A stretch of 64,000 bases of DNA from Acidobacteriota bacterium. Its GTDB lineage: Bacteria > Acidobacteriota > UBA6911 > RPQK01 > JAJDTT01. The stretch's first letter is position 1. Each line of letters opens with the position of its first letter. The DNA lies in assembly GCA_965263035.1 (NCBI GenBank), contig OZ253580.1:1184001-1248000 (forward strand), in the 5' to 3' direction. The translations under genes were made by a program, and so were the position numbers. Positions 1-50,206 of this stretch are shown one piece after another. The notes beneath the pieces were generated by a model. That model had not been told where the DNA came from. It did not search any database and worked only from the letters and a program-made list of their open reading frames with translations.

Positions 1-206
1 AGCCGGCGCTCGAATTGCTGGGCGAGATACTGTTGGCGATAGACCGGGACGACGACGCAGCAAAGGCATTCCAGGCATCCCTGGAGCGCACCCCCAGGCG
101 CGCCCTCTCACTGCAGGGTTTGCACAAAGCTGCGACGGCCGCAGGCGATCAGGAGGCCGCCGAACGGGTGAATCTCGAGTTGCGGGACCTGGCGTCGAGA
201 CTCTGA
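1..206 (+). CDS. C-terminal end of a TPR-like protein (partial, runs off window start)
   Basis: Helical repeat-like sequence ELLGEILLAIDRDDDAAKAFQASLERTPRRALSLQGL; stop TGA ends at 206. Confidence 0.6.
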   Translation, partial: PALELLGEILLAIDRDDDAAKAFQASLERTPRRALSLQGLHKAATAAGDQEAAERVNLELRDLASRL

Positions 207-218
207 GTCCAACCCCCG

Positions 219-305
219 GGAGCGGCGGTTTCCAACCGCCGAACTCCCGATGGTGCAAGGGGGAATGAGCACACGGAGGAATGGGCGACTGGAATTCGCC
301 CCTCC
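219..305. repeat. Inverted pair of REP-like palindromes (REPIN-like)
   Basis: GGAGCGGCGGTTTCCAACCGCCG at 219-241; 283-305 reverse-complements to GGAGGGGCGAATTCCAGTCGCCC; both are GGAG + hairpin, located just after a stop codon. Confidence 0.6.
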
Positions 306-343
306 TGAGCCGCCGTTCCCAAGTTCCCCACAAAGAGAGATGA

Positions 344-392
344 TTTGCTATGGATAGCAAAAAATGACCCACAATTTGCTATAGACAGTAAA
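344..392. promoter_or_regulatory. Tandem palindromic operator-like sites
   Basis: TTTGCTAT-GG-ATAGCAAA (344-361, perfect 8-bp arms) and degenerate copy TTTGCTAT-AG-ACAGTAAA (375-392). Confidence 0.5.
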
Positions 393-524
393 CACCTCCC
401 CAAATATCCAAAGACGACCGTCGGCGTTGGCATGGAGTCGCGCCGTTGACTCGGAGCCGGGGCCGGAAACATACTCTGATCCGGTCGACCTGACCGTCGT
501 TAGAAACCATAGAGGAGAGGATTC

Positions 525-2261
525 GTGGGACTCGGACCGGACCTCGGAAGGTGCATTCGCTCAGGTTTCGTGGCGCTTTGGACCCTGGTGGGACCGATCG
601 CCTGTTCCCCGCCGCCGGAAGGCCCGGAGACGGCGGCAGTCGGCCCCGAGGAGGTGCGGAAGGCCCTGAAACAGGCGGTGGAGTTCTTCCGCACTCAGGT
701 GTCCACCTCCGGCGGTTACCATTTCCGTTACGCGACGGACCTGAGCTACGGGCGGTCCGAGGCGGCCGAGGGTCCGTCTCAGGTCACGGTGCAGACCGGA
801 GGAACGCCCCGGGTGGGAATGGCCTACCTGAGGGCCTACGAGGCCACGGGAGACCCCGGCTATCTGGAAGCGGCGCGGGAGACCGCACTGCTGCTGGTTC
901 GGGGTCAGCACTGCTCCGGGGGTTGGGACTACATCATCGAGTTGGACCCCGAAAAGCGCCGATCGTATCCCTACCGAGTCGACGGGAATTGTGCGGAGAG
1001 ACCGGATACCGCTCCGGAAGAAGTGGCCTCCGGACCCAAAGCGGCCAGTACGCTGGACGACAACGTCACTCAAGGCGCTCTCCGGCTTCTCATGAGGGTG
1101 GATCGGGAATTGGGATTCCAGGACCCGAAGATCCACGAGGCGAGCCTCTATGCTCTCGATCAACTGGCCCGGGCCCAATACCCCAACGGCGCCTGGCCCC
1201 AGCGTTTTCGGGTACTGTCCGATCCCGGTCTCCCGGCCACCCGGTCCGCCGGGTATCCCGGCTCGTGGTCTCGCGAATGGCCGGGTCCCGATTACCGCCA
1301 TCATTACACCCTCAACGACAACGCCATTCTGGACGTGATCGACACCTTCCTGGAGGCGGCACGAATCTATGGCGAGCCTCGCTACCGGGCCGTGGCCGAA
1401 AAGGGGGGCGACTTCCTCCTGCTGGCCCAGATGCCCGATCCCCAGCCCGCCTGGGCCCAACAGTATGACGGCCGGATGCACCCCGCCTGGGGCAGGATCT
1501 TCGAGCCGCCGTCGGTCACCGGCTCCGAGTCTCAGTCGGTCCTGCAGATGCTCCTGGTCCTGTACCGCGAGACCGGCCGGAAGAAGTACCTGGAGCCGAT
1601 TCCTCGGGCCGTCGAGTACCTCCGGAAATCCAACCTGCCCTCCGATGGACCCTGGCGCGAGGAAGGCGGGCGATGCGGTCCGGACGCACTCTGTCTGGCT
1701 CGATTCTATGAGCTCGGCACCAATCGGCCCCTCTTCGTCACCAAGGGGAGCCGGGTCCGGATGGAAAAGGGAACCAGCCGCCTGCTGGACGGATACGAGC
1801 TGAGCTACTCGCCCGAGAGCGTCATCACCCACTACGGTCTCTGGACCGACGGCAGCCGCCTGGAGAAGACGGAGCAGGAATACCGGTCACTGCTCTCCCA
1901 GGACCCCTCGGCCATTGGACGCCCGGAGCGCCTCCACGGCCTCTCGCCCTGGCGGGGGGAGACTTCGTTTCCCTCGGGCCCGGAGCTGTCCGGCCGGGTC
2001 CGGAATCTGGTGCAGAGCCTGGACCCGCGCGGGGCGTGGGTCCAGGAGGGGTCGGTGGGCAAGGCCGACCCGATAATATTCCTGTTTGCAGCCGAAGACA
2101 TGGTCGTGACCATCGATGATCGGGCGATCCCTCTGAAAGAGAACGGGAGGCTGACCGTCTTTCGAGGAGACAAGCCACCGCTGGAGCGAATCATCAACTC
2201 CCGAACCTTCGCCCGAAATATCGAGACCATGGCCGCCTTCCTGAGCGAGAGCGGCCGGTGA
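525..2261 (+). CDS. Pectate lyase PelA/PL10-like lipoprotein (start uncertain)
   Basis: Motifs STLDDNVT, AQYPNGAWPQ, TLNDNA, QPAWAQQYD, ARFYEL; lipobox-like PIAC. Confidence 0.75.
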   Translation: MGLGPDLGRCIRSGFVALWTLVGPIACSPPPEGPETAAVGPEEVRKALKQAVEFFRTQVSTSGGYHFRYATDLSYGRSEAAEGPSQVTVQTGGTPRVGMAYLRAYEATGDPGYLEAARETALLLVRGQHCSGGWDYIIELDPEKRRSYPYRVDGNCAERPDTAPEEVASGPKAASTLDDNVTQGALRLLMRVDRELGFQDPKIHEASLYALDQLARAQYPNGAWPQRFRVLSDPGLPATRSAGYPGSWSREWPGPDYRHHYTLNDNAILDVIDTFLEAARIYGEPRYRAVAEKGGDFLLLAQMPDPQPAWAQQYDGRMHPAWGRIFEPPSVTGSESQSVLQMLLVLYRETGRKKYLEPIPRAVEYLRKSNLPSDGPWREEGGRCGPDALCLARFYELGTNRPLFVTKGSRVRMEKGTSRLLDGYELSYSPESVITHYGLWTDGSRLEKTEQEYRSLLSQDPSAIGRPERLHGLSPWRGETSFPSGPELSGRVRNLVQSLDPRGAWVQEGSVGKADPIIFLFAAEDMVVTIDDRAIPLKENGRLTVFRGDKPPLERIINSRTFARNIETMAAFLSESGR

Positions 2262-2277
2262 CGAGGAGCCTCCCGTC

Positions 2278-3738
2278 GTGACCTGGGTCGGGGAACACGG
2301 CCTGGTGCTGGCGCTCTTTGGAGTCTACACGGCACTCATGGTCTACCACGCCTGGATCGGGCAACGCCGGACCCGAGGCTGGATGGACTTCTTCGTCGGC
2401 GGACGGTCCCTGGGAGGCGTCACGCTGGGGATCTCGTTTTTCGCCACCTACGCCAGTACCAACAGCTATGTGGGTTTCTCGGGCCAAGCCTACAGCTACG
2501 GCTTGTCCTGGTTGCTCCTGGTGCCCTTCGCGGTGGGTTTCACCTGGATGGCCTGGATCTGGGTGGCGCCCCGGCTGCGGGAGCGGACCGCCTCGCTGGG
2601 CTCGGTCACCGTTCCCGACTTCATCGGATTCCGCTATGCCAGCACTCCGGCACGGGTGGGAGCGGCCCTGCTGGTTCTCTTCTCCAGCGTGATCTACATG
2701 ACCGCGGTCTTCAAAGGCATCGGCAACCTGCTGGAGGCGGTCCTGGAGGTCCCCTACTGGACGGCCATCGGAATGGTCCTGGTCGTCGTCATGCTCTACA
2801 CGGCGGTGGGCGGCTTTCATTCGGTAGTCCGAACCGATGTGATCCAGGGCGGCATGATGATCGTCGCCGCCGTGGTGCTCTTCACGGGGACTTACCGGGC
2901 CGCCGGCGGCTGGGAGCCGATTTCCCAGGTTGTGGATCAGGTTCCTTCCTCGGTAGCGGGACCGCTTCCGCTGACTCTGCTGCTGGGCGTCATCTTCGCC
3001 ACCACCATCAAGGCACTGGTGGAGCCCAGGCAGCTCTCCCGCTTCTACGCCCTGGAAAACCGGAAGGCGGTCCGTCACGGCACCTGGATCTCACCGGGAA
3101 TATTTCTGCTGGTGTTCAGCCTGCTGACGCCCATCGGGCTGTTCGCGCGCCGGATTCTGCCCCCGGGGCTGGAAGACACGGACCGGGTCGTGCCGGCGCT
3201 TCTGGCCGGGGGGGAGGTCTTCGGTCCCTTCGTGAGCGCCTTTCTCTTCGTGGCCATGGTGTCCGCCGCCATGTCCTCTCTGGATTCGGTGCTTCTGGTC
3301 GTGGCCTCCACCTGCGAGCGGGATCTGGTGGGCCTGATCTGGAAGGGCCGCAGCGAACGCGCCATCCTGCAGTGCACTCGAGTCTACGTCGCTCTCTTCG
3401 CCGTGGTGACCGCCCTGGTGGCGTTGAACCCTCCGGGGGGCGTCGTCTCCATCACCGCATTCTCCGGGAGCCTTTACGCCGCTTGCTTCCTGCCCAGCCT
3501 GCTGTTCGGACTCTATTGGAACCGAGGCAACGGCCGGGCGGTGCTGACCTCCTATGCCGCGGGGATCGCCTGCCTGATCGTCTGGCCCCATCTCCCGGAG
3601 GTTGCCCTGGTCCACCGCGTCTTCCCGGCGGTGATCCTCTCGACTCTCGCCTACGTCTCGGTATCCCTCCTGACCCCTCCGGCGTCCCCCGTTTCCGAAG
3701 TCGAGCATTCTGGAGTCTCGCGCCGCCGGCGAGCGTGA
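2278..3738 (+). CDS. Sodium:solute symporter (SSS) family permease
   Basis: DFFVGGRSLG, YTAVGG...VVRTDVIQG, SAAMSSLDS motifs; about 13 hydrophobic segments. Confidence 0.9.
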   Translation: MTWVGEHGLVLALFGVYTALMVYHAWIGQRRTRGWMDFFVGGRSLGGVTLGISFFATYASTNSYVGFSGQAYSYGLSWLLLVPFAVGFTWMAWIWVAPRLRERTASLGSVTVPDFIGFRYASTPARVGAALLVLFSSVIYMTAVFKGIGNLLEAVLEVPYWTAIGMVLVVVMLYTAVGGFHSVVRTDVIQGGMMIVAAVVLFTGTYRAAGGWEPISQVVDQVPSSVAGPLPLTLLLGVIFATTIKALVEPRQLSRFYALENRKAVRHGTWISPGIFLLVFSLLTPIGLFARRILPPGLEDTDRVVPALLAGGEVFGPFVSAFLFVAMVSAAMSSLDSVLLVVASTCERDLVGLIWKGRSERAILQCTRVYVALFAVVTALVALNPPGGVVSITAFSGSLYAACFLPSLLFGLYWNRGNGRAVLTSYAAGIACLIVWPHLPEVALVHRVFPAVILSTLAYVSVSLLTPPASPVSEVEHSGVSRRRRA

Positions 3739-3776
3739 AAGTCCCCGCGGCGGACTGGTAACATCACGGGACTCCA

Positions 3777-4928
3777 ATGAAGGCGCTACTGCTGGAACGC
3801 CCGGGACAGCTCGAGGTGGCCGACGTCCCGGAACCGGAATGCGGAGATCACGACGTCGTGATCCAGGTCGGGGCCGTAGGCGTCTGCGGCACCGACTTCC
3901 ACATCTTTCAGGGCGAAGCCAACTACAACTCCGATGCCGGCGGCCGGCCGATCCCTCTCCCGGTCCAGCCCCAGATCCTGGGGCACGAGTTCTGCGGAAC
4001 CGTTCTGGAAGCGGGCGCCAGGGTTCGAGATCTGTCGCCGGGGGACAGGGTGGCCGTGGACCAGGGCCTGAACTGCTACAGCCAGCGGATCACTCCGGTC
4101 TGCGAGTACTGTGCCGGCGGGGACTCGCACCAGTGTCTCCACTATCAGGAACTGGGCATCACCGGAATTCCGGGAGCCATGCGGGAACGGGTCGCGATTC
4201 CCGCGGTGAACGCGGTCCGGCTGGAGGGAGAGATGGGATTCCCGGAAACCGCCCTGTCGGAACCTCTGGGATGTATCCTCCACGCCCTCGACCGGGTGGT
4301 TCGCACCCCTGCCCGCTACATGTTCCATCCAGAATCTCATGGATCGCGAACCATGGAAAACGTCCTGATCCTGGGCGCCGGACCGGCCGGCCTTCTGTTC
4401 CTGCAGAACCTCCGGAGAGAAGTGGGATTCGAAGGGACCGTTCTGGTGGCCGATCGTGTCCCGGAGAAGTTGAACCTGGTGGAACGCCTCGGAGGAACGC
4501 CTTTGGACGTGGCCCAATCCGATCTGGTGGAAATGGTCTCGCACCTGACCCGGGGCCGGAAGATCGACCTGCTCATCGAGGCCACCGGAAGCGGAGCCGC
4601 CTTTCGGACCATTTCCTCACTGGTTCGCAAGCAGGCTACCGTGCTGCTCTACGGGCACGGGCACCAGGGGACCGATCTGAGCGTCATCAATCGCCTGCTC
4701 TTTCTGGAACCGACGCTGGTGGTCTCGGTGGGAGCCTCGGGCATGCTGAACCCGGCGACCCGGCGGTCCGAGACCACGACCCGGGCCGTAGAGCTGATTC
4801 AGACGGGTCAAGTGGACGTCCGATCCCTCATCACTCACCGCTATCCGACCTTGGAGACGGTGAGGGGCGCCTTCGGCGGCGACTCCAGGGACGCGGCCTA
4901 CATCAAGGGCGTCCTGCAGGTCTCCTGA
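3777..4928 (+). CDS. Zinc-dependent medium-chain alcohol/polyol dehydrogenase
   Basis: GVCGTDFH, ILGHEFCG, structural Zn cysteines (C..CEYC..C), Rossmann GAGPAG. Confidence 0.9.
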   Translation: MKALLLERPGQLEVADVPEPECGDHDVVIQVGAVGVCGTDFHIFQGEANYNSDAGGRPIPLPVQPQILGHEFCGTVLEAGARVRDLSPGDRVAVDQGLNCYSQRITPVCEYCAGGDSHQCLHYQELGITGIPGAMRERVAIPAVNAVRLEGEMGFPETALSEPLGCILHALDRVVRTPARYMFHPESHGSRTMENVLILGAGPAGLLFLQNLRREVGFEGTVLVADRVPEKLNLVERLGGTPLDVAQSDLVEMVSHLTRGRKIDLLIEATGSGAAFRTISSLVRKQATVLLYGHGHQGTDLSVINRLLFLEPTLVVSVGASGMLNPATRRSETTTRAVELIQTGQVDVRSLITHRYPTLETVRGAFGGDSRDAAYIKGVLQVS

Positions 4929-41307: not shown

Positions 41308-42623
41308 TAAAGCTCGACGCCGGCGAAACGGCCGGCATACTCTCCCGCTATCTGCCCGCTTCCGGAGTGGAGATCGTCGCCGACCTGTCCCGAAGCCACG
41401 GATCCCGCCTCTGCGAATTCCAGACCAATCGTCTGTTTCTGGACTTCATGGCCTTCTTTGCCACCTCGCCCATCGGCTACAACCACCCTCGCATGACGCG
41501 TCCCGAAGTGGTGGAAGAAATGGGAGAGGCGGCCCTCCACAAACCGTCCAACTCGGACCTTTACACCCCCGAGATGGGGGCCTTCGTGGACACCTTTTCC
41601 CGCCTCGCGCTGCCTGATTCCATGAAGCACCTCTTCTTCGTGGAAGGCGGCGCCCCGGCGGTGGAAAACGCTCTCAAGGTGGCTTTCGACTGGAAGGCCC
41701 GGAAGAATCGCGCCCAAGGTCACCCGGAAGAGAAGGACCTTCAGGTGATCCATTTCAGGGAGGCCTTCCACGGACGGCTCGGCTACACCCTTTCCCTCAC
41801 CAACACCTTCGACCGGAACAAGACCCGGTATTTCCCCAAGTTCGGCTGGCCCCGGATCGAGAATCCCAAATGCCGCTTCCCCCTGACAGGAGACAACCTC
41901 AATTCAGTGCTGGAATCCGAGGAGCGAGCCCTGCGGCAGATCCGGCGGGTTCTGGAGAAGAATCCCTCGCAAGTCGCCTGCCTGATCCTGGAGCCGATCC
42001 AGGGGGAGGGCGGAGACAACCATTTCCGGCGGGAGTTCCACCGGGCTCTGCGGTCCGTCTGTGACGAGTTCGACCTCCTGTTCATCTACGACGAGGTGCA
42101 GACCGGCCTGGGCGGGACCGGAGAGATGTGGGCCATGGAGCATTACGCGGAGCCGGACCTGCTGGCCTTCGGCAAGAAGACCCAGGTCTGCGGGATCATG
42201 GCCAACGGCCGCATCGACGACGTCCCCGACAACGTCTTCCAGGTGCCGGGGCGGATCAATTCGACCTGGGGAGGGAGCCTCGTCGACATGGTCCGGTGCC
42301 GGATCTACCTGGAGATCTACGAGCGAGAGGGGATTCTGGCGCACGCCCGCAAGATGGGCCGTGTGCTGTTGGAGGGTCTTCACGAACTGATCGAGGAGAC
42401 GCCCGCCCTTTTCTCCAACGCCAGGGGCGTCGGTCCCTTTTGCGCCATCGACCTGCCCGACACTCCCAGCCGCGACCGGTTCGTGAGGAGCCTTCTACGC
42501 CGCCGCCTGCTCATCCTGCCCTCCGGCGAGCGGTCCATCCGCTTCCGACCCGCGCTGAACATGCCGGAAGAGGACGTGCAGGAGGGTCTGGAGATCTTCC
42601 GAAAGGCCACCCGGGAATTCTGA
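41286..42623 (+). CDS. lat: L-lysine 6-aminotransferase (class III PLP aminotransferase)
   Basis: HKPSNSD, GAPAVENALKVAFDWK, AFHGR.GYTLSLTNT, FPKF.WPRI, EPIQGEGGD, DEVQTG, AFGKKTQVCG, RINSTWGG; likely ATG lies inside the repeat. Confidence 0.88.
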   Translation: MRLSPRTVKLDAGETAGILSRYLPASGVEIVADLSRSHGSRLCEFQTNRLFLDFMAFFATSPIGYNHPRMTRPEVVEEMGEAALHKPSNSDLYTPEMGAFVDTFSRLALPDSMKHLFFVEGGAPAVENALKVAFDWKARKNRAQGHPEEKDLQVIHFREAFHGRLGYTLSLTNTFDRNKTRYFPKFGWPRIENPKCRFPLTGDNLNSVLESEERALRQIRRVLEKNPSQVACLILEPIQGEGGDNHFRREFHRALRSVCDEFDLLFIYDEVQTGLGGTGEMWAMEHYAEPDLLAFGKKTQVCGIMANGRIDDVPDNVFQVPGRINSTWGGSLVDMVRCRIYLEIYEREGILAHARKMGRVLLEGLHELIEETPALFSNARGVGPFCAIDLPDTPSRDRFVRSLLRRRLLILPSGERSIRFRPALNMPEEDVQEGLEIFRKATREF

Positions 42624-42700
42624 CGTGCCGCCGGTCCGAAACCCCGGATCTATAGAGGACTCGGTAGCCGCTTGCCCCCGTGCCGTGAGTGCCAGCACAG

Positions 42701-45700
42701 CTAGCCCCAAAGCCAATCCAGTCCTGAGAAGGCCAGTTCCCGGTCGAAATTCTCGATATTGTCACGCACGTTCACGATCAGGCACCGGTCGTTGCCGCCA
42801 TTTCTCGGTCCTCTCAGACCTCTCCCGATCATCTGGAAATAGAGGTTCGGGCTGTAGACGGGACGGGCGACGATGATGACTCGCGTCTTGGGTGCGTCGA
42901 ATCCTTCGCGGAAGACGCCATAGTTGACCAAGACCCGGATCTCTCCCGCCCGGTATTCTTCGACGATCCTTCGTCGGACGGAGGACTCCGTTGCGCCGCT
43001 CACCACCCTGGACCTCACGCCTTGAGAGTTCAACAGCGCCGCCACCGTCAGAGCGTGTTCCACCGACGTGGCGAACACCAGCGTGGGCCACTCCGGGCTG
43101 ACATTACCAACGAGTCTTTCGTACGCGTGGACGATACGCTTGGTTCGATCCACGTCGCGAGCAATGCGATCCTCCATGCTGCGCGGCAACCAGGCGGGAA
43201 AACGCATCGCCTGCAATATTTTCAACTCCTCCCGGCTCAAGGAGAAATCGCCACCTTCGATGATTTCGTGGTCAGCGCGCGCCAGTACGCGCATCTCCTG
43301 CAGCTCGCGGACGACTTGCCCGGGTTCAGCGCTCGCCAACGCTCCGGCATCCAGGCGATTGGCACCGTAGCGACGCACCAGCCTTGCTGTTTCTCTCTCG
43401 TCATGCCCCCGGTAAGGCGTCGCGGTAAGGCCAATCAGAAACGGCTCCTCACTTCGCTGCCAACGGGTCAGCCCGATCTCTTCCATGACGGAAGTGAAGG
43501 TAGGCGCAATGGAACGGTGGGCTTCGTCGAAAACGACGAGTGTGAAATCCGAAAGGAAACTGTACTCACCGGGTTGTTTCGACAACTTGGCGTTGAGCGT
43601 CTGGATCGTCGCGACAATGACGTGGAGGTCGTTGCCAGGCAGGGGCCGCGGCTGGCCAGCCCACATCCTGGAAATGCGCAAGCGTTTCCCTTCAACGCCC
43701 ACGCTGGACCAGACTTGCCCCCACGCTTCCACAGCCTGCTCACACAGCTCGTCGCGGTCCGCCACCCACAGGACACCGCCATTGAAGCCGTCACGAATGG
43801 CTTCGACAATGGCCTGCACCGCGACGCGCGTCTTTCCTGACCCCGTAGGCAGACTGATCATCCCTCGACGCCCACCATTTCCCGCGAATCCATTGCAGAG
43901 CAGGTCTCGCACCCGGTCCACGATAGTGCGCTGGTAACCATGCGGTTCCGGAAGTGAGTGTGGCCCCTCCACATCAAGAAACGGCGGACGGCGAGAACTC
44001 CGTTGTCCGGCCCACTCCGCCGAGAACCCGAGCGATCGGACGAAGTCAACGGCGCGTTGTGATCCAGCCCAACGTTTCGGCGGGTCCAAGTGGTCCAAAG
44101 CCCATTTGTACTCTTTGAGAGCTGACGTGTGATACGTCGCAATGGCGATTTCTGCCAGCTCCATGCCGGTCATCGGTGTGCGGTCGACTTCAAGCACCTG
44201 AAGGAGGGACGTGGGCAAACCGGAACGCAGGGCATCCGCCCCCACGGCTTGGGCCAGCCTCTCGGCGTCCGATGCCAGACGCCGGATCGCCGCGTGCTGT
44301 CTTTCGACTTCCTCCGGGGCTGCGTACCGCAGTATGTGCTCGAGCTGGGTGTCACTCAGATCCAGACCCAACCGTTGCGTGACCAGCCGCAGCTCCCGAT
44401 CCTCGTCATCCGTCCTGACCAGGTAGACTTTGGAGTCCACCAATACACATTCGGGACCGCTGGCGCCGTCGGCGACCAGTTCCAGGCATCGGATGAGCGA
44501 CCAAGTCATCGAGTGCGCACTCAGGTGCGGCGCCAGACCGGGCCACACGTCGGTCAGCGGCACCGCGTCCTCCTCGCCGACAGGTTCCACCGCGGGCTCG
44601 GCAAGATCGAAGTCTTTCCTGATTCGGCTCGCCATCGGATGCGACAGCAGGACGCTCAGCGCGGCAGGATTGGCGGGGTGAGGACCGAGCGCATCCGCCA
44701 GGGGAACGATTTCACCGGCGCACCGGATACGCCCATGCTCCCTCAGCAACGCGACCGCCGGATTCGGACACGGAAGCTCCGGATAGATGCGCTGAGTTTC
44801 GTGGCGCAGGGTCCATCCGCCATACGTGGTCTCCAGGGAAAGCAAGGCGTCGGTATATCGTGCTCTGCCTTCATCGGAAAGCTGGGTCAGAACCTGCATG
44901 GGACCACTTCCGACCGTCGAGTCGAACTGCAGTCTGCGCCAATGCGGCTTCTTCGGAAGGTCCCGAGCCGTGAACTTCCGGCGACAGGTGTATACGAACC
45001 ACTCGAAAGCGGGGTCGCCCGACAATTGCCGATTCGGCCTCGGCCCATCCGTCACCCCGAGTCTCTCCAGCAACTTCAGGTCGGCACGATGGAAGTCGGT
45101 GTCGACCGTGACGTCGCTGTCGCGTGCGCCTGCCGAAGACACGATTTCACCGGGCAGGAGGGTCGAATACAGGCCCTGCCAATGGCCAGACCGCGTCCAC
45201 ACTTGAATCCGCCACGCCGAATCCCACCGGGCCTTGATCATCGCGTACGCCGTGTCCGTGCCCAAATCGCGCGAAGTGACCCAGAACTCGGTCCACCCCG
45301 TGCCACCCGATGCGCCGTTCCACCTGAACAACCGCCGGACCAGGGATTGGAAATGACTCTCAGCAGAGACGTACTTGATGCCAAGTTCCGTCAGAGCGGC
45401 CAAAGTGTCTGCGTCAGACACGAGCCGCGCATGAACCAGGAGGTCGTCAACATCCTGGTCGTCTTCGAACGATGACAGGAACACGCCATCCGGGTCAGGC
45501 GAGCACCAGTCCCCGCTCTGCGTCCGCAGAATGGCGCCAAGGTATGCTCCCTGCCTCAGCTCCTGCGGAATCGACGCAGCCACTTGGAGCGCCGTCATGG
45601 ACGCCTCGATCGCCTCATCTCCAACCGAGCCGTCGACCAGGGCATTCAGCCACTCTCCTATCGACGACCGAGGGGCCTGCGTCAAACTCCGCCGCTCCGG

Positions 45701-47152
45701 AGAAAACAGCCGGTTGACCCGGGCGATCCGATTCGTACGGAGTCCGCTGTGGTGAAGCCAGTCTGTTGGACGCTGACTGGCTTCTGCCCACTCTTGGAGC
45801 GATTCCGCCCCCGACAGATCTTGAGTCAGCGCTGACGGCGCGTAGGAAACGTCCCGTATCCTGCGCAGAGTTCCGACCTGATCGGGGACCACGGGCCGGC
45901 CGCGCAGTTCCTCATACAACCGATCGCGAAGGCGGTTGCTGTGCTCGGTGTCGCCAGCTTCATATCGGCGCGGGAGAGCATCCAGATGTCGTGCCGGATC
46001 CCGCTCGCTGGCCAGATCGGGCAAGCATCTCGCCACCATCCTCGCCGCGGCATCGATCAACTCGTCGTTGTACGGACCAGGCAACAGATTCTGCCGGTCT
46101 TCGTTGGTCTTCCAGGGTGCGTTCAGGATACCGGCCAGAAGACTTGCCGTCTTGGTCGGGAAGAAGTGCCAGAAATAACCCGGTTCGTTCAGTCGGTCCA
46201 ACGGCGCTGCCCACCAGACGGGCACCTCACCGCCGTCGTCGAGTGAACGTCTGTCCTCTTGGGCTTCGGCAGAAAGCTGGTGTGTGATCTTGAAGCACTT
46301 CCACCGCGAAGAACCTGAGCCGGTATCGAGGCGAAGCTTGCCGTTGAACCTTTCCAGAACGATTTTCCGAGACCGTTCCTCGCCTTCAAGGGTCAGATGC
46401 CGGACATGGTCAACAAACAGGAGAAACTCAGGCGGAAAATCGCGGACCTGTTGCGCAAGATCCTCCCATGCGCCCGGCTTCAGCGGCAGGCGGACGATGT
46501 TTGTGGCCCAAGTCATCAGATCGACCAGATCGTCGTCTCCTTCCGCCACTTTTCGAACATCAATGGGAACGGGCAACCGCAGGACCGGATAGCGTTCTCC
46601 TGGCACAAACTTGGCTATGCAGTCGGCCGCATATTCCCGGTCGAACCGAAAGGAGCCGGCGCGACTGTAGAACTCGGGTGCATCCGTGACACCCAGCACC
46701 GATTTGAAGCCCAGTCCAAACCGCCCGATCTCACTCGTGTTCCTCTTGCTCGACAGGTGGGAGAACATGAGTGCTCGGACCCCGTCCTGACTGATCGCGT
46801 CTCCATCGTCGGCGCAGTAGAGATGGTTTTCCGTCAGGCGGACCAGAATGCTCTGGCCGCAGAGTGCGTTGGCAAGCGCATCCGCACTGTTCTGGACCAG
46901 CTCGAAGAGCTGCCGATGAGCGTAACCGCCATGAGCGATATCATGCTCATGGTTTGCATGTTCGGTGATGAGATGCGGTTGCTCACGGTATGCCCGGAGC
47001 GTGTTCCTCGTCTGCTCCGCAATGAAACCGCAAATCGGATTATCGGAACCGGCCCAGCCGGGCTTTTCGATGGGTTGAGGCAGATTCAGCTTGGCATTCG
47101 GACGATAGAATCTACCGCGCTCACCCTTGGAGAAATCATACTCCTGTCTCAT
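42701..47152 (-). CDS. Large sacsin-type GHKL ATPase + SF2 (DEAH) helicase with N-terminal BrnA-like antitoxin peptide
   Basis: GHKL motifs ELVQNSADA, DDG, IGRFGLGFKSV; helicase motifs LPTGSGKT, DEAH, TATP, QMIGRGLR; N-terminus MRQEYDFSKGERGRFYRP. Confidence 0.85.
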   Translation of the reverse strand: MRQEYDFSKGERGRFYRPNAKLNLPQPIEKPGWAGSDNPICGFIAEQTRNTLRAYREQPHLITEHANHEHDIAHGGYAHRQLFELVQNSADALANALCGQSILVRLTENHLYCADDGDAISQDGVRALMFSHLSSKRNTSEIGRFGLGFKSVLGVTDAPEFYSRAGSFRFDREYAADCIAKFVPGERYPVLRLPVPIDVRKVAEGDDDLVDLMTWATNIVRLPLKPGAWEDLAQQVRDFPPEFLLFVDHVRHLTLEGEERSRKIVLERFNGKLRLDTGSGSSRWKCFKITHQLSAEAQEDRRSLDDGGEVPVWWAAPLDRLNEPGYFWHFFPTKTASLLAGILNAPWKTNEDRQNLLPGPYNDELIDAAARMVARCLPDLASERDPARHLDALPRRYEAGDTEHSNRLRDRLYEELRGRPVVPDQVGTLRRIRDVSYAPSALTQDLSGAESLQEWAEASQRPTDWLHHSGLRTNRIARVNRLFSPERRSLTQAPRSSIGEWLNALVDGSVGDEAIEASMTALQVAASIPQELRQGAYLGAILRTQSGDWCSPDPDGVFLSSFEDDQDVDDLLVHARLVSDADTLAALTELGIKYVSAESHFQSLVRRLFRWNGASGGTGWTEFWVTSRDLGTDTAYAMIKARWDSAWRIQVWTRSGHWQGLYSTLLPGEIVSSAGARDSDVTVDTDFHRADLKLLERLGVTDGPRPNRQLSGDPAFEWFVYTCRRKFTARDLPKKPHWRRLQFDSTVGSGPMQVLTQLSDEGRARYTDALLSLETTYGGWTLRHETQRIYPELPCPNPAVALLREHGRIRCAGEIVPLADALGPHPANPAALSVLLSHPMASRIRKDFDLAEPAVEPVGEEDAVPLTDVWPGLAPHLSAHSMTWSLIRCLELVADGASGPECVLVDSKVYLVRTDDEDRELRLVTQRLGLDLSDTQLEHILRYAAPEEVERQHAAIRRLASDAERLAQAVGADALRSGLPTSLLQVLEVDRTPMTGMELAEIAIATYHTSALKEYKWALDHLDPPKRWAGSQRAVDFVRSLGFSAEWAGQRSSRRPPFLDVEGPHSLPEPHGYQRTIVDRVRDLLCNGFAGNGGRRGMISLPTGSGKTRVAVQAIVEAIRDGFNGGVLWVADRDELCEQAVEAWGQVWSSVGVEGKRLRISRMWAGQPRPLPGNDLHVIVATIQTLNAKLSKQPGEYSFLSDFTLVVFDEAHRSIAPTFTSVMEEIGLTRWQRSEEPFLIGLTATPYRGHDERETARLVRRYGANRLDAGALASAEPGQVVRELQEMRVLARADHEIIEGGDFSLSREELKILQAMRFPAWLPRSMEDRIARDVDRTKRIVHAYERLVGNVSPEWPTLVFATSVEHALTVAALLNSQGVRSRVVSGATESSVRRRIVEEYRAGEIRVLVNYGVFREGFDAPKTRVIIVARPVYSPNLYFQMIGRGLRGPRNGGNDRCLIVNVRDNIENFDRELAFSGLDWLWG

Positions 47153-47454
47153 CGTACAGATTCGTCGTCGCGTCGCTCGTTTCGCCTTGCCGGCCGCGCC
47201 GAAATGATCCGCGTCGGGGTCCTGTCGCGGGCCTGACGGGAAGTGTGGCTCACGACCAACTAACGACCGTCCCGGGTCAGTCCAATCGTCAAATAGCGCC
47301 TCTCATCCTCACTGTGGTCTTCGTCAGCTATCGTCAATTCGAGCGGATCCTCGAACCCAGTGGCGGCATCACGAAAGTCGACGCCGTGCTTGCGCAAATT
47401 GCTTTCTGCCTCGCTCGGATCCCAATCGAAGTCGAACAAGCTATTCCTATCCAC
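47149..47454 (-). pseudogene. brnT: BrnT family ribonuclease toxin with one in-frame TAG
   Basis: FDWD....SNLRKHGVDF.DA...F.DP, HS.DE.R..TIG; after TAG (47260-62) the frame continues LVVSHT...RIISAR.A...ER to TGA at 47149-51, overlapping the next ATG. Confidence 0.85.
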
Positions 47455-47619
47455 TCGTTCAACAGCCAGGGTATGCCTTCATTTTCGAGGGGATGAAACA
47501 ATCCGGGTAAGTGCAACATTGACCAGCGGTCGGGCATCGACCATGCCAAAGCCACGCGAGCATCATAGGGCAGAATCAATCAGGTATTTGTCTGTTTCAA
47601 ATAGCCGACCATCGACCTC

Positions 47620-48009
47620 TCAAAGCACGTAGTGCCGGAGCCGGAAGCGAACCTGGTCGCGGGTCTCGACGGCGATGACGTCCAATCGCACCGGCGCCTC
47701 CTCCAACTCGTGGCGCCAGATGAACTCGCAGGCGAGGCGCTCCAGCCGGCGTTGCTTCTCCGGGTCCACGCGCTCCTCCGGCAGAAATGGTGAGGGAAGA
47801 AGACTCGTCTTCACCTCGACGAAGACGAGCCAGGAATCGTTCCAGGCGATCAGGTCCACCTCGCCCCGCCGGCTCCTCCAATTCCGGGCCACCACGTCCC
47901 ATCCCATCGCCAGCAGGTGCCGCAGTGCGATCCACTCGCCCCAGCGGCCCAAGTCGCCGCGAGAGGGGTTGAAGCGCCGATTCCAGAGCCAGGCGAGGAT
48001 CGGGGACAC
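47620..48009 (-). CDS. yraN: YraN (UPF0102) family putative endonuclease (start uncertain)
   Basis: LGRWGE..A...L, RNWRSRRGEVDLIA, LVFVEVKT, RLDVIAV. Confidence 0.88.
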   Translation of the reverse strand: MSPILAWLWNRRFNPSRGDLGRWGEWIALRHLLAMGWDVVARNWRSRRGEVDLIAWNDSWLVFVEVKTSLLPSPFLPEERVDPEKQRRLERLACEFIWRHELEEAPVRLDVIAVETRDQVRFRLRHYVL

Positions 48010-48130: not shown

Positions 48131-48586
48131 TTATTTGCCTGGTTTATCCTTGAAGTCCAGGGCCGCCGAATTGATACAGAAGCGAAGGCCGGTGGGACGG
48201 GGGCCGTCATCGAAGACGTGTCCCAGGTGAGACCCGCAACCGCGGCACAGGACCTCGACTCTCCTCATCCCGTAGCTGTCGTCCGTCTCCATGGCGACCC
48301 GCTCTTTCTCGACGGGAGCCCAGAAGCTGGGCCAACCGGTCCCCGAATCGAACTTGGTGTCCGAGCTGAAGAGCTCGCTGCCGCAGGCCACGCAAAGATA
48401 GGAGCCGTCGGCCTTGTTGGCGTCGTACTTGCCGGAAAAGGGTGGCTCGGTTCCCTTCATCCTGCAGACGTAGAACTGCGCTGCGCTGAGGGTCTTTCTC
48501 CACTCCTCCTCGGTGGTGGCAGTGGGTGTTTCCGAACGTTCATCCTCGTCCCGAGCCCCGTCGGGGTCTCTCCGCCAGTTCGCCAT
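48131..48586 (-). CDS. msrB: Peptide-methionine (R)-S-oxide reductase
   Basis: GTEPPFSG, CVAC, KFDSGTGWPSF, HLGHVFDDGP.PTGLRFCINS. Confidence 0.96.
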   Translation of the reverse strand: MANWRRDPDGARDEDERSETPTATTEEEWRKTLSAAQFYVCRMKGTEPPFSGKYDANKADGSYLCVACGSELFSSDTKFDSGTGWPSFWAPVEKERVAMETDDSYGMRRVEVLCRGCGSHLGHVFDDGPRPTGLRFCINSAALDFKDKPGK

Positions 48587-50206
48587 GAGGTCTCCTTTCC
48601 GGTCCTTTTTCGCTCAACCAGAGCGTCGCTTTGATCCCAAGACAACTTGACTCCTGCATTTCCTGAAAAGTGCCGCAAGAGATTGCCGCCAAAACCACGG
48701 CTGCTGCGAATCCGACGGAGATCTCCGTTTCTGGATACTGGCTTCGATGCTGGCCGAAATTTCCTACGGAGTGTAGGTGGTCCACCAACAGAGAAGTCGT
48801 CTTCGTAACGTATTTGCTTTGTCGAGAAATACGATCCGACCCCGTTATCAGGCGAAGAACATGGCATTGCCTTCCGAACCCACGAGGTAGCCTACCTTGT
48901 TCTTCCGGAAAGTTCGTTATACGTCCGTGTCCCCACTCGGCAAGCCAATGTGGGGGTAGCGTCCTTTGGGGCGGCAACTCGGCTTTCCAGATCAGTACGA
49001 GAGCACGTTCGACTATGCCCCTGATTCCGTAGATCGTGAGTTCCGGATCGTCAATCTCTTTGACGGCACGGTTGACGAAGTTTTTGAGGATGCTGTCTAC
49101 ATCCTGGCCTGCAATTTGCCTGAGGCGGAGTTCCAGTAAGGGTCCAACGTGCGTTTCGAAGTCGGAAGCAGTGCCGAAAAGGCGCGTGAGGTTGGTGAGA
49201 GCCGGCGCCTGTCGTCTCGCGTACCTCTGAATGAGTCGGCACGAGCCTCTGATACGGTTTTTCGAAACGCGGCCAAATCCTCGTTCCTCAAGTGTGCGGC
49301 GACGGCGGTCAGAAATGTCAGTTAGCGGAATATCGGCGTCGGCAAGCGCGCCGAGGTCGGCGCGTATGTCGACATCGCAGTCCTCCCACAGAGCGGCAAG
49401 GAGTTCAAGCCGTCCCTCCAATATAGTTTCAGCGGCTGCATCAATCTCCGGTTTGGAGACGCGGGCTCCGCGATGTCGATCCCATAACTCCTGGAGGAGC
49501 GCGCAAATCAGCACAGGAGCGCCTCCTGTCCAGTTGGTGATCTCCTTTCGAGCCGAAACATCCGGCTCGCAGCCGACGTCCAGGAGCGGCTGCAGGAACG
49601 GATCCCAATCAGCGTCGTCGAGCGCACCGACCCGGACCGGGGTGTCGTAAAAGATCTCCCAGAAGTCAGAGGTTCGAGGCTCCTCGGTCCGGCAGAGCTC
49701 GCGCAACGGCCGGCGACTTCCGGTGACGAGTCTGAGACTGGTCTTCTGGGCCAGCGAACGAAGCTGACCCCACAGGTTGCGCGTCAATCCCGGACCGTCG
49801 AGCACCACGAGTATCCGCGCACACTCGCCTACAAGCTCCCCGAGAACCAGTCCCAATAGATCATGAACCGCTGGATCCTCGACATCGATCCACTCGGAAA
49901 GCTCCTCGCGGTACGGTTGCAGAGCTTTTTTGATTTCTTCCCCCAACCGCTGCTTGAATGCACCGTCCGACCTGGGAGTCCCATGCCTAAGATCGACGTG
50001 GACCGTGGTCAGGTACCCACTCGACTTCGAGGTGTACTCTTTGGCGAGATGGCGCAGCAGGACGGATTTGCCGTAGTGCGCCGGACCCACAACCGATACG
50101 TGATCCGGCGAGGGTTTCTCCGAGTGGCGCTTGATGCGCCGGAGGAGGGCCTTTCTTCCCAAAAGGGGAGGTGGAATCCCAGAACACGATAAGGATTTTT
50201 CGTCAT
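48540..50206 (-). pseudogene. Degraded P-loop ATPase (frameshift near start, altered Walker B region, truncated C-terminus)
   Basis: ATG 50206 with GGAGG gives MTKNPYRVLG, out of frame (44 nt) with LGRK...VSVVGPAHYGKSVLL; C-terminus reads into the msrB 5' region. Confidence 0.65.

Follow-up and report, generated by a model that had tools for sequence, protein, structure and literature searches.

Introduction

Tiamat is described in the preprint text (bioRxiv 10.64898/2026.09.30.754977, October 2026) as an antiphage ATPase and DNase whose core comprises a DUF3684 region with TPR-like repeats, a fold that is conserved and a metalloprotease-like fold that is inactive; in the Tiamat-like Type III-A proteins a superfamily 2 (SF2, 'UvrB-like') helicase replaces the nuclease. 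The same text argues that effectors can come in trans and mentions a RelE-like domain fused to the helicase that neighbours Type I-K. The locus considered here lies in a window of 64,000 nucleotides from an Acidobacteriota bacterium (the whole stretch of DNA analysed, contig OZ253580.1; all positions are counted within the window) and consists of a brnT toxin pseudogene followed by the gene of a 1483-residue protein, referred to below as the giant protein. The latter resembles Tiamat and Type III-A in its N-terminal Hsp90/sacsin-type GHKL ATPase, its large central region and, as in Type III-A, its SF2 helicase, and weak fold hints (Z <5), pointing to helical repeats and to a fold of zincin type, may recall the Tiamat core. 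It differs in having neither the nuclease nor a match to Pfam DUF3684, in a helicase of RadD/ResIII rather than UvrB kind, and in its brnT neighbour and antitoxin-derived N-terminal peptide, both missing from the preprint text searched: 'BrnT' is absent from the main text, antitoxins are named once, and RelE occurs only on the Type I-K neighbour. An earlier note on this DNA had proposed a candidate new defence system; the giant protein itself is of a kind already described, the Tiamat-like GHKL-helicases (PADLOC TmtA; the preprint).

Two further groups of systems are relevant for comparison. Among the toxin-antitoxin systems, BrnT and BrnA reportedly form type II modules, which Heaton and colleagues are said to have described in 2012. 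The locus shares with them the toxin-first order, the overlapping genes, a BrnT-family toxin and the same 25-residue start of the downstream protein, and differs in having some 1450 residues of ATPase and helicase where those modules have the ribbon-helix-helix (RHH) DNA-binding domain; binding to an operator is accordingly not expected. Single-chain fusions of BrnT and BrnA are covered in Gerdes 2025 (PMC11980606), whose searched text has 0 occurrences of 'helicase', and literature searches for a coupling of BrnT to a GHKL-helicase returned no other account. In the HigB2/HigA2 pair of Vibrio cholerae the disordered N-terminal segment of VcHigA2 alone neutralises HigB2, a 20-residue peptide being enough (PMC5416850). 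This pair, toxin-first and with a disordered neutralising N-terminus ahead of a DNA-binding domain, may serve as a model for the grafted peptide, although it belongs to another toxin/antitoxin family and its antitoxin is a small helix-turn-helix (HTH) protein.

To the second group belongs PrrC, which the EcoprrI restriction enzyme keeps latent. In PARIS, the AriA ATPase sequesters the AriB toxin, as is also stated in the preprint discussion (10.64898/2026.09.30.754977). Under the reading proposed below, and only there, the locus would share with both systems a latent RNase that is silenced on a large NTPase defence protein and loosed on phage attack, with the difference that docking here would rely on a piece of an antitoxin that can still be recognised and has been joined to the sensor; the likeness is functional, and no sequence relationship is claimed. 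Eukaryotic sacsin combines Hsp90-like repeats with a C-terminal HEPN domain (PMC3710099) and so likewise joins a sacsin-type GHKL ATPase to a domain of RNase type that stems from toxin-antitoxin systems. In sacsin, however, the HEPN domain is covalently attached, whereas here the toxin is a separate protein of the BECR fold and the antitoxin peptide alone is fused.

The giant protein begins with an antitoxin-like peptide

The elements that connect the toxin gene with the giant gene are arranged as follows:

47149..47454, minus strand: brnT pseudogene, BrnT/RelE-fold RNase toxin family (PF04365), GTG start, TGA stop
47260..47262, minus strand: in-frame TAG inside brnT, codon 65 counted from the GTG
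47149..47152, minus strand: ATGA overlap of the brnT TGA (47149-47151) with the giant-gene ATG (47150-47152)
42701..47152, minus strand: open reading frame of the giant protein, 1483 residues, Tiamat-like GHKL ATPase and SF2 helicase
47078..47152, minus strand: residues 1-25 of the giant protein, MRQEYDFSKGERGRFYRPNAKLNLP, with homology to the N-terminal segment of the RHH antitoxins that partner BrnT

The toxin frame was matched by PF04365 (BrnT_toxin; E 8.9e-25, 87.3 bits versus a cut-off of 34.5, with the TAG read as X) and was also recovered by a whole-genome profile search. It ends, as the earlier note had recorded, in an ATGA overlap with the 1483-residue frame, from which we infer translational coupling of the two genes. 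The note had further likened the first ~25 residues of the giant protein to the N-terminus of small antitoxins, a likeness for which strong support was obtained. When residues 1-40 were searched against shorter proteins, the matches were giant proteins in truncated form and a family whose members have about 66 residues, start with MKKEYDFSKGERGRFYRPNAKLNLP and then continue with VYLD.... Residues 1-25 were identical to 66-residue proteins such as P0129 at 23 of 25 positions, and an hhalign comparison of profiles built from 30 giant N-termini and 13 small proteins gave a probability of 99.4% (E 1.7e-21, 31 columns, 65% identity). The likeness stops at P25, where the RHH strand would start and the giant protein continues with QPIEKPGW... 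in place of VYLD....

The small proteins gave weak RHH/CopG matches, and a BrnT hidden Markov model (HMM) built here detected BrnT frames next to them at 70 of the 80 genome loci, 69 of these frames lying directly upstream and on the same strand; by sequence and gene order, these small RHH proteins are therefore the usual partners of brnT. The segment EYDFSKGxRGxFY...LNLP of these partners is present in the giant protein. Family scans found no RHH/CopG domain within its 1483 residues, and its size is not that of the small proteins; judged by its sequence, it is not a BrnA and holds only BrnA's N-terminal segment. When the first 60 residues of the giant proteins from the window and from locus L052 were compared with Pfam and NCBIfam, no family was returned. 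In an AlphaFold model of residues 1-1060 (mean predicted local distance difference test score, pLDDT, 81.9), residues 1-27 fall below pLDDT 50, and the peptide is thus predicted to be disordered, as expected for a segment that folds only on its partner. The best match in the PDB to the N-terminal profile of the small antitoxins was 7vd7_B, a 44-residue antitoxin chain ending in SEAVRGKFFRP, and the toxin chain of 7vd7 matches the BrnT of the window with E 5.9e-24.

A different combination occurs in P0193 (102 residues, from a cluster of 33 sequences), in which the peptide, EYDFSKGERGRFY...LNLP, precedes DUF2442 (PF10387) instead of an RHH domain. This fusion suggests that the 25-residue segment is a portable module.

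Conservation of the peptide and co-divergence with BrnT

Among 8000 candidates scored, 2042 were homologous to the giant protein at E up to 0.001, and the homologues amounted to 3393 cluster representatives in a further count; the peptide was counted in the best 120. It was present in 104, in which Y5, D6, F7, G13, F15 and P25 are conserved at 97-100% and positions 26-32 are variable; conservation at this level extends across homologues with an overall identity of only 57-60%. The genomic context was then determined for 68 loci from species-representative genomes (L001-L068), 47 with and 21 without the peptide. A full-length brnT frame, as detected with the BrnT HMM, lies directly upstream of the giant gene in 33 of the 47 peptide loci and in none of the 21 others; L052 (BrnT at L052:3714-4001) and L038 are examples of intact pairs. 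The junction is ATGA in 46 of the 47, the exception being L047 with TTGA, and no separate antitoxin gene was found between brnT and the giant gene in the peptide loci. The fusion is accordingly not peculiar to this assembly, and it recurs in many phyla with an intact-looking brnT upstream; the opposite outcomes, a unique fusion or homologues devoid of peptide and toxin gene, were among those that the earlier note had seen as fatal to its proposal.

The residues that are conserved in canonical BrnT are kept in the giant-linked toxins. In a BrnT tree of 85 rows the labels 'giant-linked' and 'canonical' need only 2 changes, and the distances among BrnT proteins correlate with those among their giant proteins (Mantel r 0.78, 27 pairs, a value reached in 0 of 2000 permutations). 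BrnT and the giant protein therefore co-diverge and are inherited as a unit. The tree of the giant proteins (57 rows; 12 loci were omitted for frames under 1300 residues) mixes phyla and has peptide and brnT on both sides of its midpoint root, suggesting that the giant gene has been transferred horizontally. Many of the related loci (L001-L068 and L152-L230) stem from metagenome-assembled genomes of Poribacteria, Poriferihabitaceae, Latescibacterota, Dehalococcoidia and similar lineages, and the mixing of phyla in the tree points to exchange within shared habitats.

One close relative, L003, whose giant protein is 85% identical, has a gene for a HicB-like antitoxin (PF15919, 3.3e-12; L003:3586-3840) where brnT would otherwise stand.

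A second toxin type at the same position

Within a Chloroflexota clade whose giant proteins lack the peptide, a different toxin was found at the corresponding place. In L062, of the Dehalococcoidia subclade, a complete RelE/ParE toxin (TIGR02683, E 2.5e-36) ends 10 bases before the giant gene. Residues 7-52 of the giant proteins of L062 and L014 match positions 3-49 of the 89 positions of the TIGR02684 antidote model (1.2e-8 and 2.2e-9, respectively), so that the fused part is the N-terminal, non-HTH half of the antidote. In L065 half of a RelE/ParE toxin remains, with no antidote part. As judged from these sequence matches, the arrangement of RelE toxin and antidote is a second, independent capture that parallels that of BrnT.

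Further N-terminal additions were observed in other copies. Many giant copies of Chloroflexota have tails rich in Lys and Arg, and P0404, P0405 and P0418 carry an N-terminal domain of about 280 residues. In P0090 and P0118 (1538 residues) the N-terminal domain is about 80% identical to stand-alone proteins of 76 residues with the motif EGYLRVIDESGEDYLYP, which in 36 of 79 loci (L152-L230) have a 77-residue partner (motif HWYEAHGIG) directly upstream. Neither the 76-residue nor the 77-residue proteins matched any Pfam or NCBIfam family, and no locus of the P0090 type was found in the five genomes searched. The pair may represent an undescribed two-gene cassette, of which the entire 76-residue protein is fused in P0090 and P0118, and a third module grafted onto the giant protein.

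The toxin gene of the window is dead and the giant gene is kept

In the window itself the brnT frame is interrupted by the in-frame TAG, a point only implicit in the earlier note, and the BrnT HMM aligns to it in two pieces (HMM positions 1-56 and 58-92). The site of the TAG is Leu in 88% of giant-linked and in 75% of the canonical BrnT proteins compared, and contigs from three DNA-like runs of three studies cover it, all with the same letters. Decoding of the TAG as an amino acid was considered and dropped, as none of the 63 tRNA genes of the genome has the anticodon CTA. Five further changes, K7E, V25G, W49Y, T87R and Y94D, affect conserved sites, defined as those with at least 85% conservation in the giant-linked or the canonical set, and the window thus lacks an uninterrupted BrnT frame with the conserved residues. 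Because of the fixed TAG, the lack of a tRNA reading it and the five changed sites, the window brnT is a pseudogene and the toxin gene is dead.

The same was observed throughout the window's clade of five Acidobacteriota copies, in all of which brnT is broken or gone and the peptide is kept. The giant protein has 1483 residues in all five, with ratios of nonsynonymous to synonymous substitution rates (dN/dS) of 0.19-0.31, and comparison with six relatives gave a dN/dS of 0.17-0.31, indicating purifying selection. We read this as the giant protein working without the toxin in this genome, where the gene is present in a single copy (6.2 Mb, one contig). Contigs from RNA libraries span parts of brnT and the 5' end of the giant gene, with carry-over of DNA being possible and the strength of transcription not readable from contigs. 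A scan of 42500-47800 found no promoter-like site, and terminator-like sites in the same range did not exceed those in shuffled sequences.

Domain architecture of the giant protein

Downstream of the peptide, the protein is composed of three parts:

45722..47026, minus strand: Hsp90/sacsin-type GHKL ATPase and the following domain, residues 43-477, homologous to the N-terminal part of TmtA
46655-46915, minus strand: GHKL core
43973..45712, minus strand: middle region, residues 481-1060 (580 residues), helical repeats and mixed alpha/beta modules with a confidently predicted fold
42812..43948, minus strand: SF2 helicase core (ResIII/DEAD and Helicase_C) with DEAH box, residues 1069-1447

The succession of GHKL ATPase, middle region and intact DEAH helicase in place of the RHH domain, which the earlier note had read from the translation, was confirmed by domain matches to sacsin/HATPase_c_3 (residues 80-166), ResIII/DEAD (1069-1257) and Helicase_C (1347-1447) and by invariant motifs. 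In 30 homologues the GHKL residues E84, N88, D91, D115, G117, G143, G146 and G148 are invariant, as are the helicase motifs PTGSGKT (I), DEAH (II), TATP (III) and QMIGRGLR (VI). Residues 43-477 are matched by the PADLOC models of TmtA, the Tiamat protein (best 1.6e-64, model positions 12-428 of 1538), which align only through their N-terminal parts, and the GHKL region by NF047352 (4.2e-18). A Foldseek search with the N-terminal half returned Hsp90, TRAP1, HtpG, sacsin SR1 and GyrB 43K.

The middle region is predicted with high confidence by AlphaFold 2 (pLDDT 89.5) and has no family match. Fold searches, all with Z <5, hinted at helical repeats at about residues 596-702 and at zincin-like folds at about 860-944 (3e11, Z 4.2; 5xbn, 3.7; 6mdx, 3.7), matches too weak to mark either a new fold or membership in a known one. 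Pfam DUF3684 matched neither the window protein (E up to 0.1) nor seven relatives (E up to 1). The helicase is nearest to RadD (1.5e-28, versus 4.7e-4 for UvrB; PDB RadD 6jde, 4.8e-24). Family scans found no C-terminal PD-(D/E)xK nuclease, its place being taken by ResIII/DEAD and Helicase_C. As the C-terminus is a helicase and the TmtA models match the N-terminal part only, the giant protein is, by sequence, Tiamat-like and not Tiamat. It has the architecture given for Type III-A, a GHKL ATPase, a core and an SF2 helicase replacing the nuclease, and the label 'UvrB-like' was not reproduced.

Proposed function and alternative explanations

The peptide homology, gene linkage, co-divergence, the parallel case of another captured toxin type, the catalytic motifs, which are intact, and the decay of the toxin within the clade, all of which were observed, lead us to regard the window as the toxin-dead copy of a conserved two-gene module, which when intact would use the peptide to tether and silence BrnT, as a plug-in effector, on a Tiamat-like defence sensor; our confidence in this reading is about evenly balanced. 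In intact relatives the first gene would encode the BrnT RNase toxin and the second, coupled by the ATGA, the Tiamat-like giant protein, the first 25 residues of which would be the toxin-binding N-terminus of the cognate antitoxin, whose RHH DNA-binding domain was replaced by the giant protein. The peptide would fold onto BrnT and silence it, and each sensor would thus carry a latent RNase. In GHKL enzymes such as Hsp90, GyrB and MutL, N-terminal segments rearrange upon ATP-driven dimerisation. The peptide is located just ahead of the GHKL domain, and a change in the sensor's arrangement during infection, dependent on nucleotide or nucleic acid, may free or activate BrnT, which would then halt translation with an outcome of the abortive-infection type. 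A phage that destroyed the sensor would bring about the same outcome.

That the peptide binds BrnT is quite probable, given its homology to canonical antitoxins, the need of an intact toxin for a neutraliser and the precedent of VcHigA2, with a weak hint added by PDB 7vd7. Triggered release and phage defence are more tentative suggestions, which we rate somewhat below an even chance. The coupling of a toxin to a sensor helicase, as envisaged in the earlier note, gains from the RelE parallel and from the co-divergence of BrnT and giant protein, whereas the idea of a guarded toxin does not apply to the window, where brnT is a pseudogene and nothing is left to be guarded. Rather doubtful, in our view, is the broader proposal that Tiamat-like sensors take on type II toxins, as effectors that can be exchanged, via a grafted neutralising peptide and release them by ATP-driven GHKL rearrangement, this having occurred independently in at least two families (BrnT and HI1419-type RelE/ParE). 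If true, it would amount to a general rule of 'antitoxin-peptide docking' by which large immune sensors are connected with toxin-antitoxin modules. The arrangement at the locus would also provide those Tiamat-like proteins that lack a nuclease with an effector. It bears on the question of how phage defence comes to incorporate toxin-antitoxin modules, since the wiring would be legible in the sequence: the DNA-binding half of an antitoxin is exchanged for an ATPase-helicase of about 1450 residues, at the same position for two unrelated toxin/antitoxin pairs. The window would represent the other end of this story, in which the toxin decays and the sensor is kept under selection. With a peptide of 25 residues, an RNase of 97 and obvious point mutants for ATPase and helicase, the module also offers a tractable system for the control of a toxin by a sensor.

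Several findings weigh against the tethering of BrnT to a defence sensor. The match to 7vd7_B is weak (E 0.45-0.56, 11-12 residues), and neither the giant's own peptide profile nor the 25-mer of the window had a match in the PDB at E up to 10. The link of the GHKL-helicase family to phage defence is homology to the distant TmtA, which was tested by others, and in the window the locus lies among genes of housekeeping type (cysS, a class-III aminotransferase, UPF0102 and msrB) rather than in a defence island. A canonical start was present in 30 of the 33 full-length brnT frames and was not found for L006, L016 and L022, and 12 of the 68 loci have no giant frame of 1300 residues, the frame being truncated, cut by the end of a contig or matched only in part. 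Where the toxin has been lost, the peptide is still found. As the giant gene is under purifying selection without the toxin and 21 of the 68 loci are peptide-less, the toxin is shown to be dispensable for the giant protein. Finally, 14 of the 47 peptide loci have no intact brnT:

Split brnT, 5 loci: L004, L008, L011 and L013 by a frameshift, L007 by a stop
C-terminal remnant of brnT only, 4 loci: L001, L002, L015 and L032
No brnT, 4 loci: L003, L010, L029 and L059
Contig end, 1 locus: L049

As an alternative, toxin and grafted peptide could act purely by addiction, stabilising the costly giant gene or its mobile element in that cells which lose the giant gene are killed by the BrnT set free; BrnT would otherwise always be neutralised and have no role in sensing or defence. 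Such a function would be in line with the inheritance of toxin and giant protein as a unit, with a giant-protein tree that cuts across phyla and thereby suggests horizontal transfer, with the decay of brnT in a conserved chromosomal context (a UPF0102 gene lies upstream of the locus in the window, L001, L002 and L007) and with the truncated, peptide-keeping giant genes beside intact brnT in L012, L064 and L068. However, it leaves unexplained why grafting took place for two types of toxin at one and the same N-terminal site beside an ATPase, the loss of the RHH domain removes the autoregulation used by classical addiction modules, and a stable 'antitoxin' of 1483 residues is unlike the labile ones that post-segregational killing needs, making addiction alone an unlikely explanation. 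BrnT might also act in the docked state and supply a Tiamat-like complex that lost its own nuclease with an RNase or RNA-binding arm, with the peptide being a tether and not an inhibitor. The helicase located where Tiamat has its PD-(D/E)xK nuclease, the conserved residues retained by giant-linked BrnT and the argument in the preprint text for effectors in trans, with the RelE-like domain on the helicase neighbouring Type I-K, are compatible with this possibility. But the peptide is the same segment as in canonical antitoxins, which silence the toxin, and a constitutively active docked RNase would presumably be toxic, and we consider this distinctly unlikely. Since the toxin is dispensable and a fair share of the loci have broken toxins or giant genes, both addiction alone and a permanently docked effector are kept as live rivals to the tethered, releasable toxin.

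The capture of a promoter and start by an in-frame deletion, which the earlier note had offered as its second explanation, fits the data poorly. In this case the start of a brnA would have been joined to a helicase gene, leaving the peptide as a neutral, functionless relic, with brnT being covered by other antitoxins in the genome. The dead or missing toxin in all five members of the window's clade, where the peptide stays, and the presence in the window genome of another BrnA-type gene, of a different sort and adjoining a brnT that is truncated, would agree with such a history. Against it stand the key residues of the peptide, conserved across the family among homologues so diverged in the rest of their sequence, the 33 full-length brnT frames with co-divergence and the parallel capture of RelE and antidote, and we judge a relic highly unlikely.

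Neighbouring genes and additional observations

The second brnT of the window's own genome (L150, C1:3936378-3939533; open reading frames 1452..1631 and 1646..1903) is truncated to model positions 26-77 and is followed by the gene of an 85-residue protein, by eye a DUF4415/BrnA-type antitoxin of another type than the EYDFSK family. Three genes upstream of the locus in the window, and overlapping the end of msrB, lies the gene of a 540-residue protein (48540..50162, minus strand) with an N-terminus resembling an AAA_16 ATPase (3.2e-6, below the Pfam cut-off).

Among the related loci, the giant frame from its start comprises only 178-912 residues, due to a stop or frameshift, in L008, L010, L012, L014, L015, L030, L042, L064 and L068. 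In L012, L064 and L068 an intact-looking brnT stands beside the truncated, peptide-bearing giant gene. Real decay and sequencing errors in long-read assemblies are both possible causes of these short frames. In L041 and L044, both from Dehalococcoidia, a gene for a protein of about 1250 residues (55..3828 and 76..3828, respectively) ends 67 bases before the giant gene. Its products show P-loop and helicase-like motifs by eye, and the gene may represent a helicase/nuclease partner like those that the preprint reports beside Tiamat-like genes.

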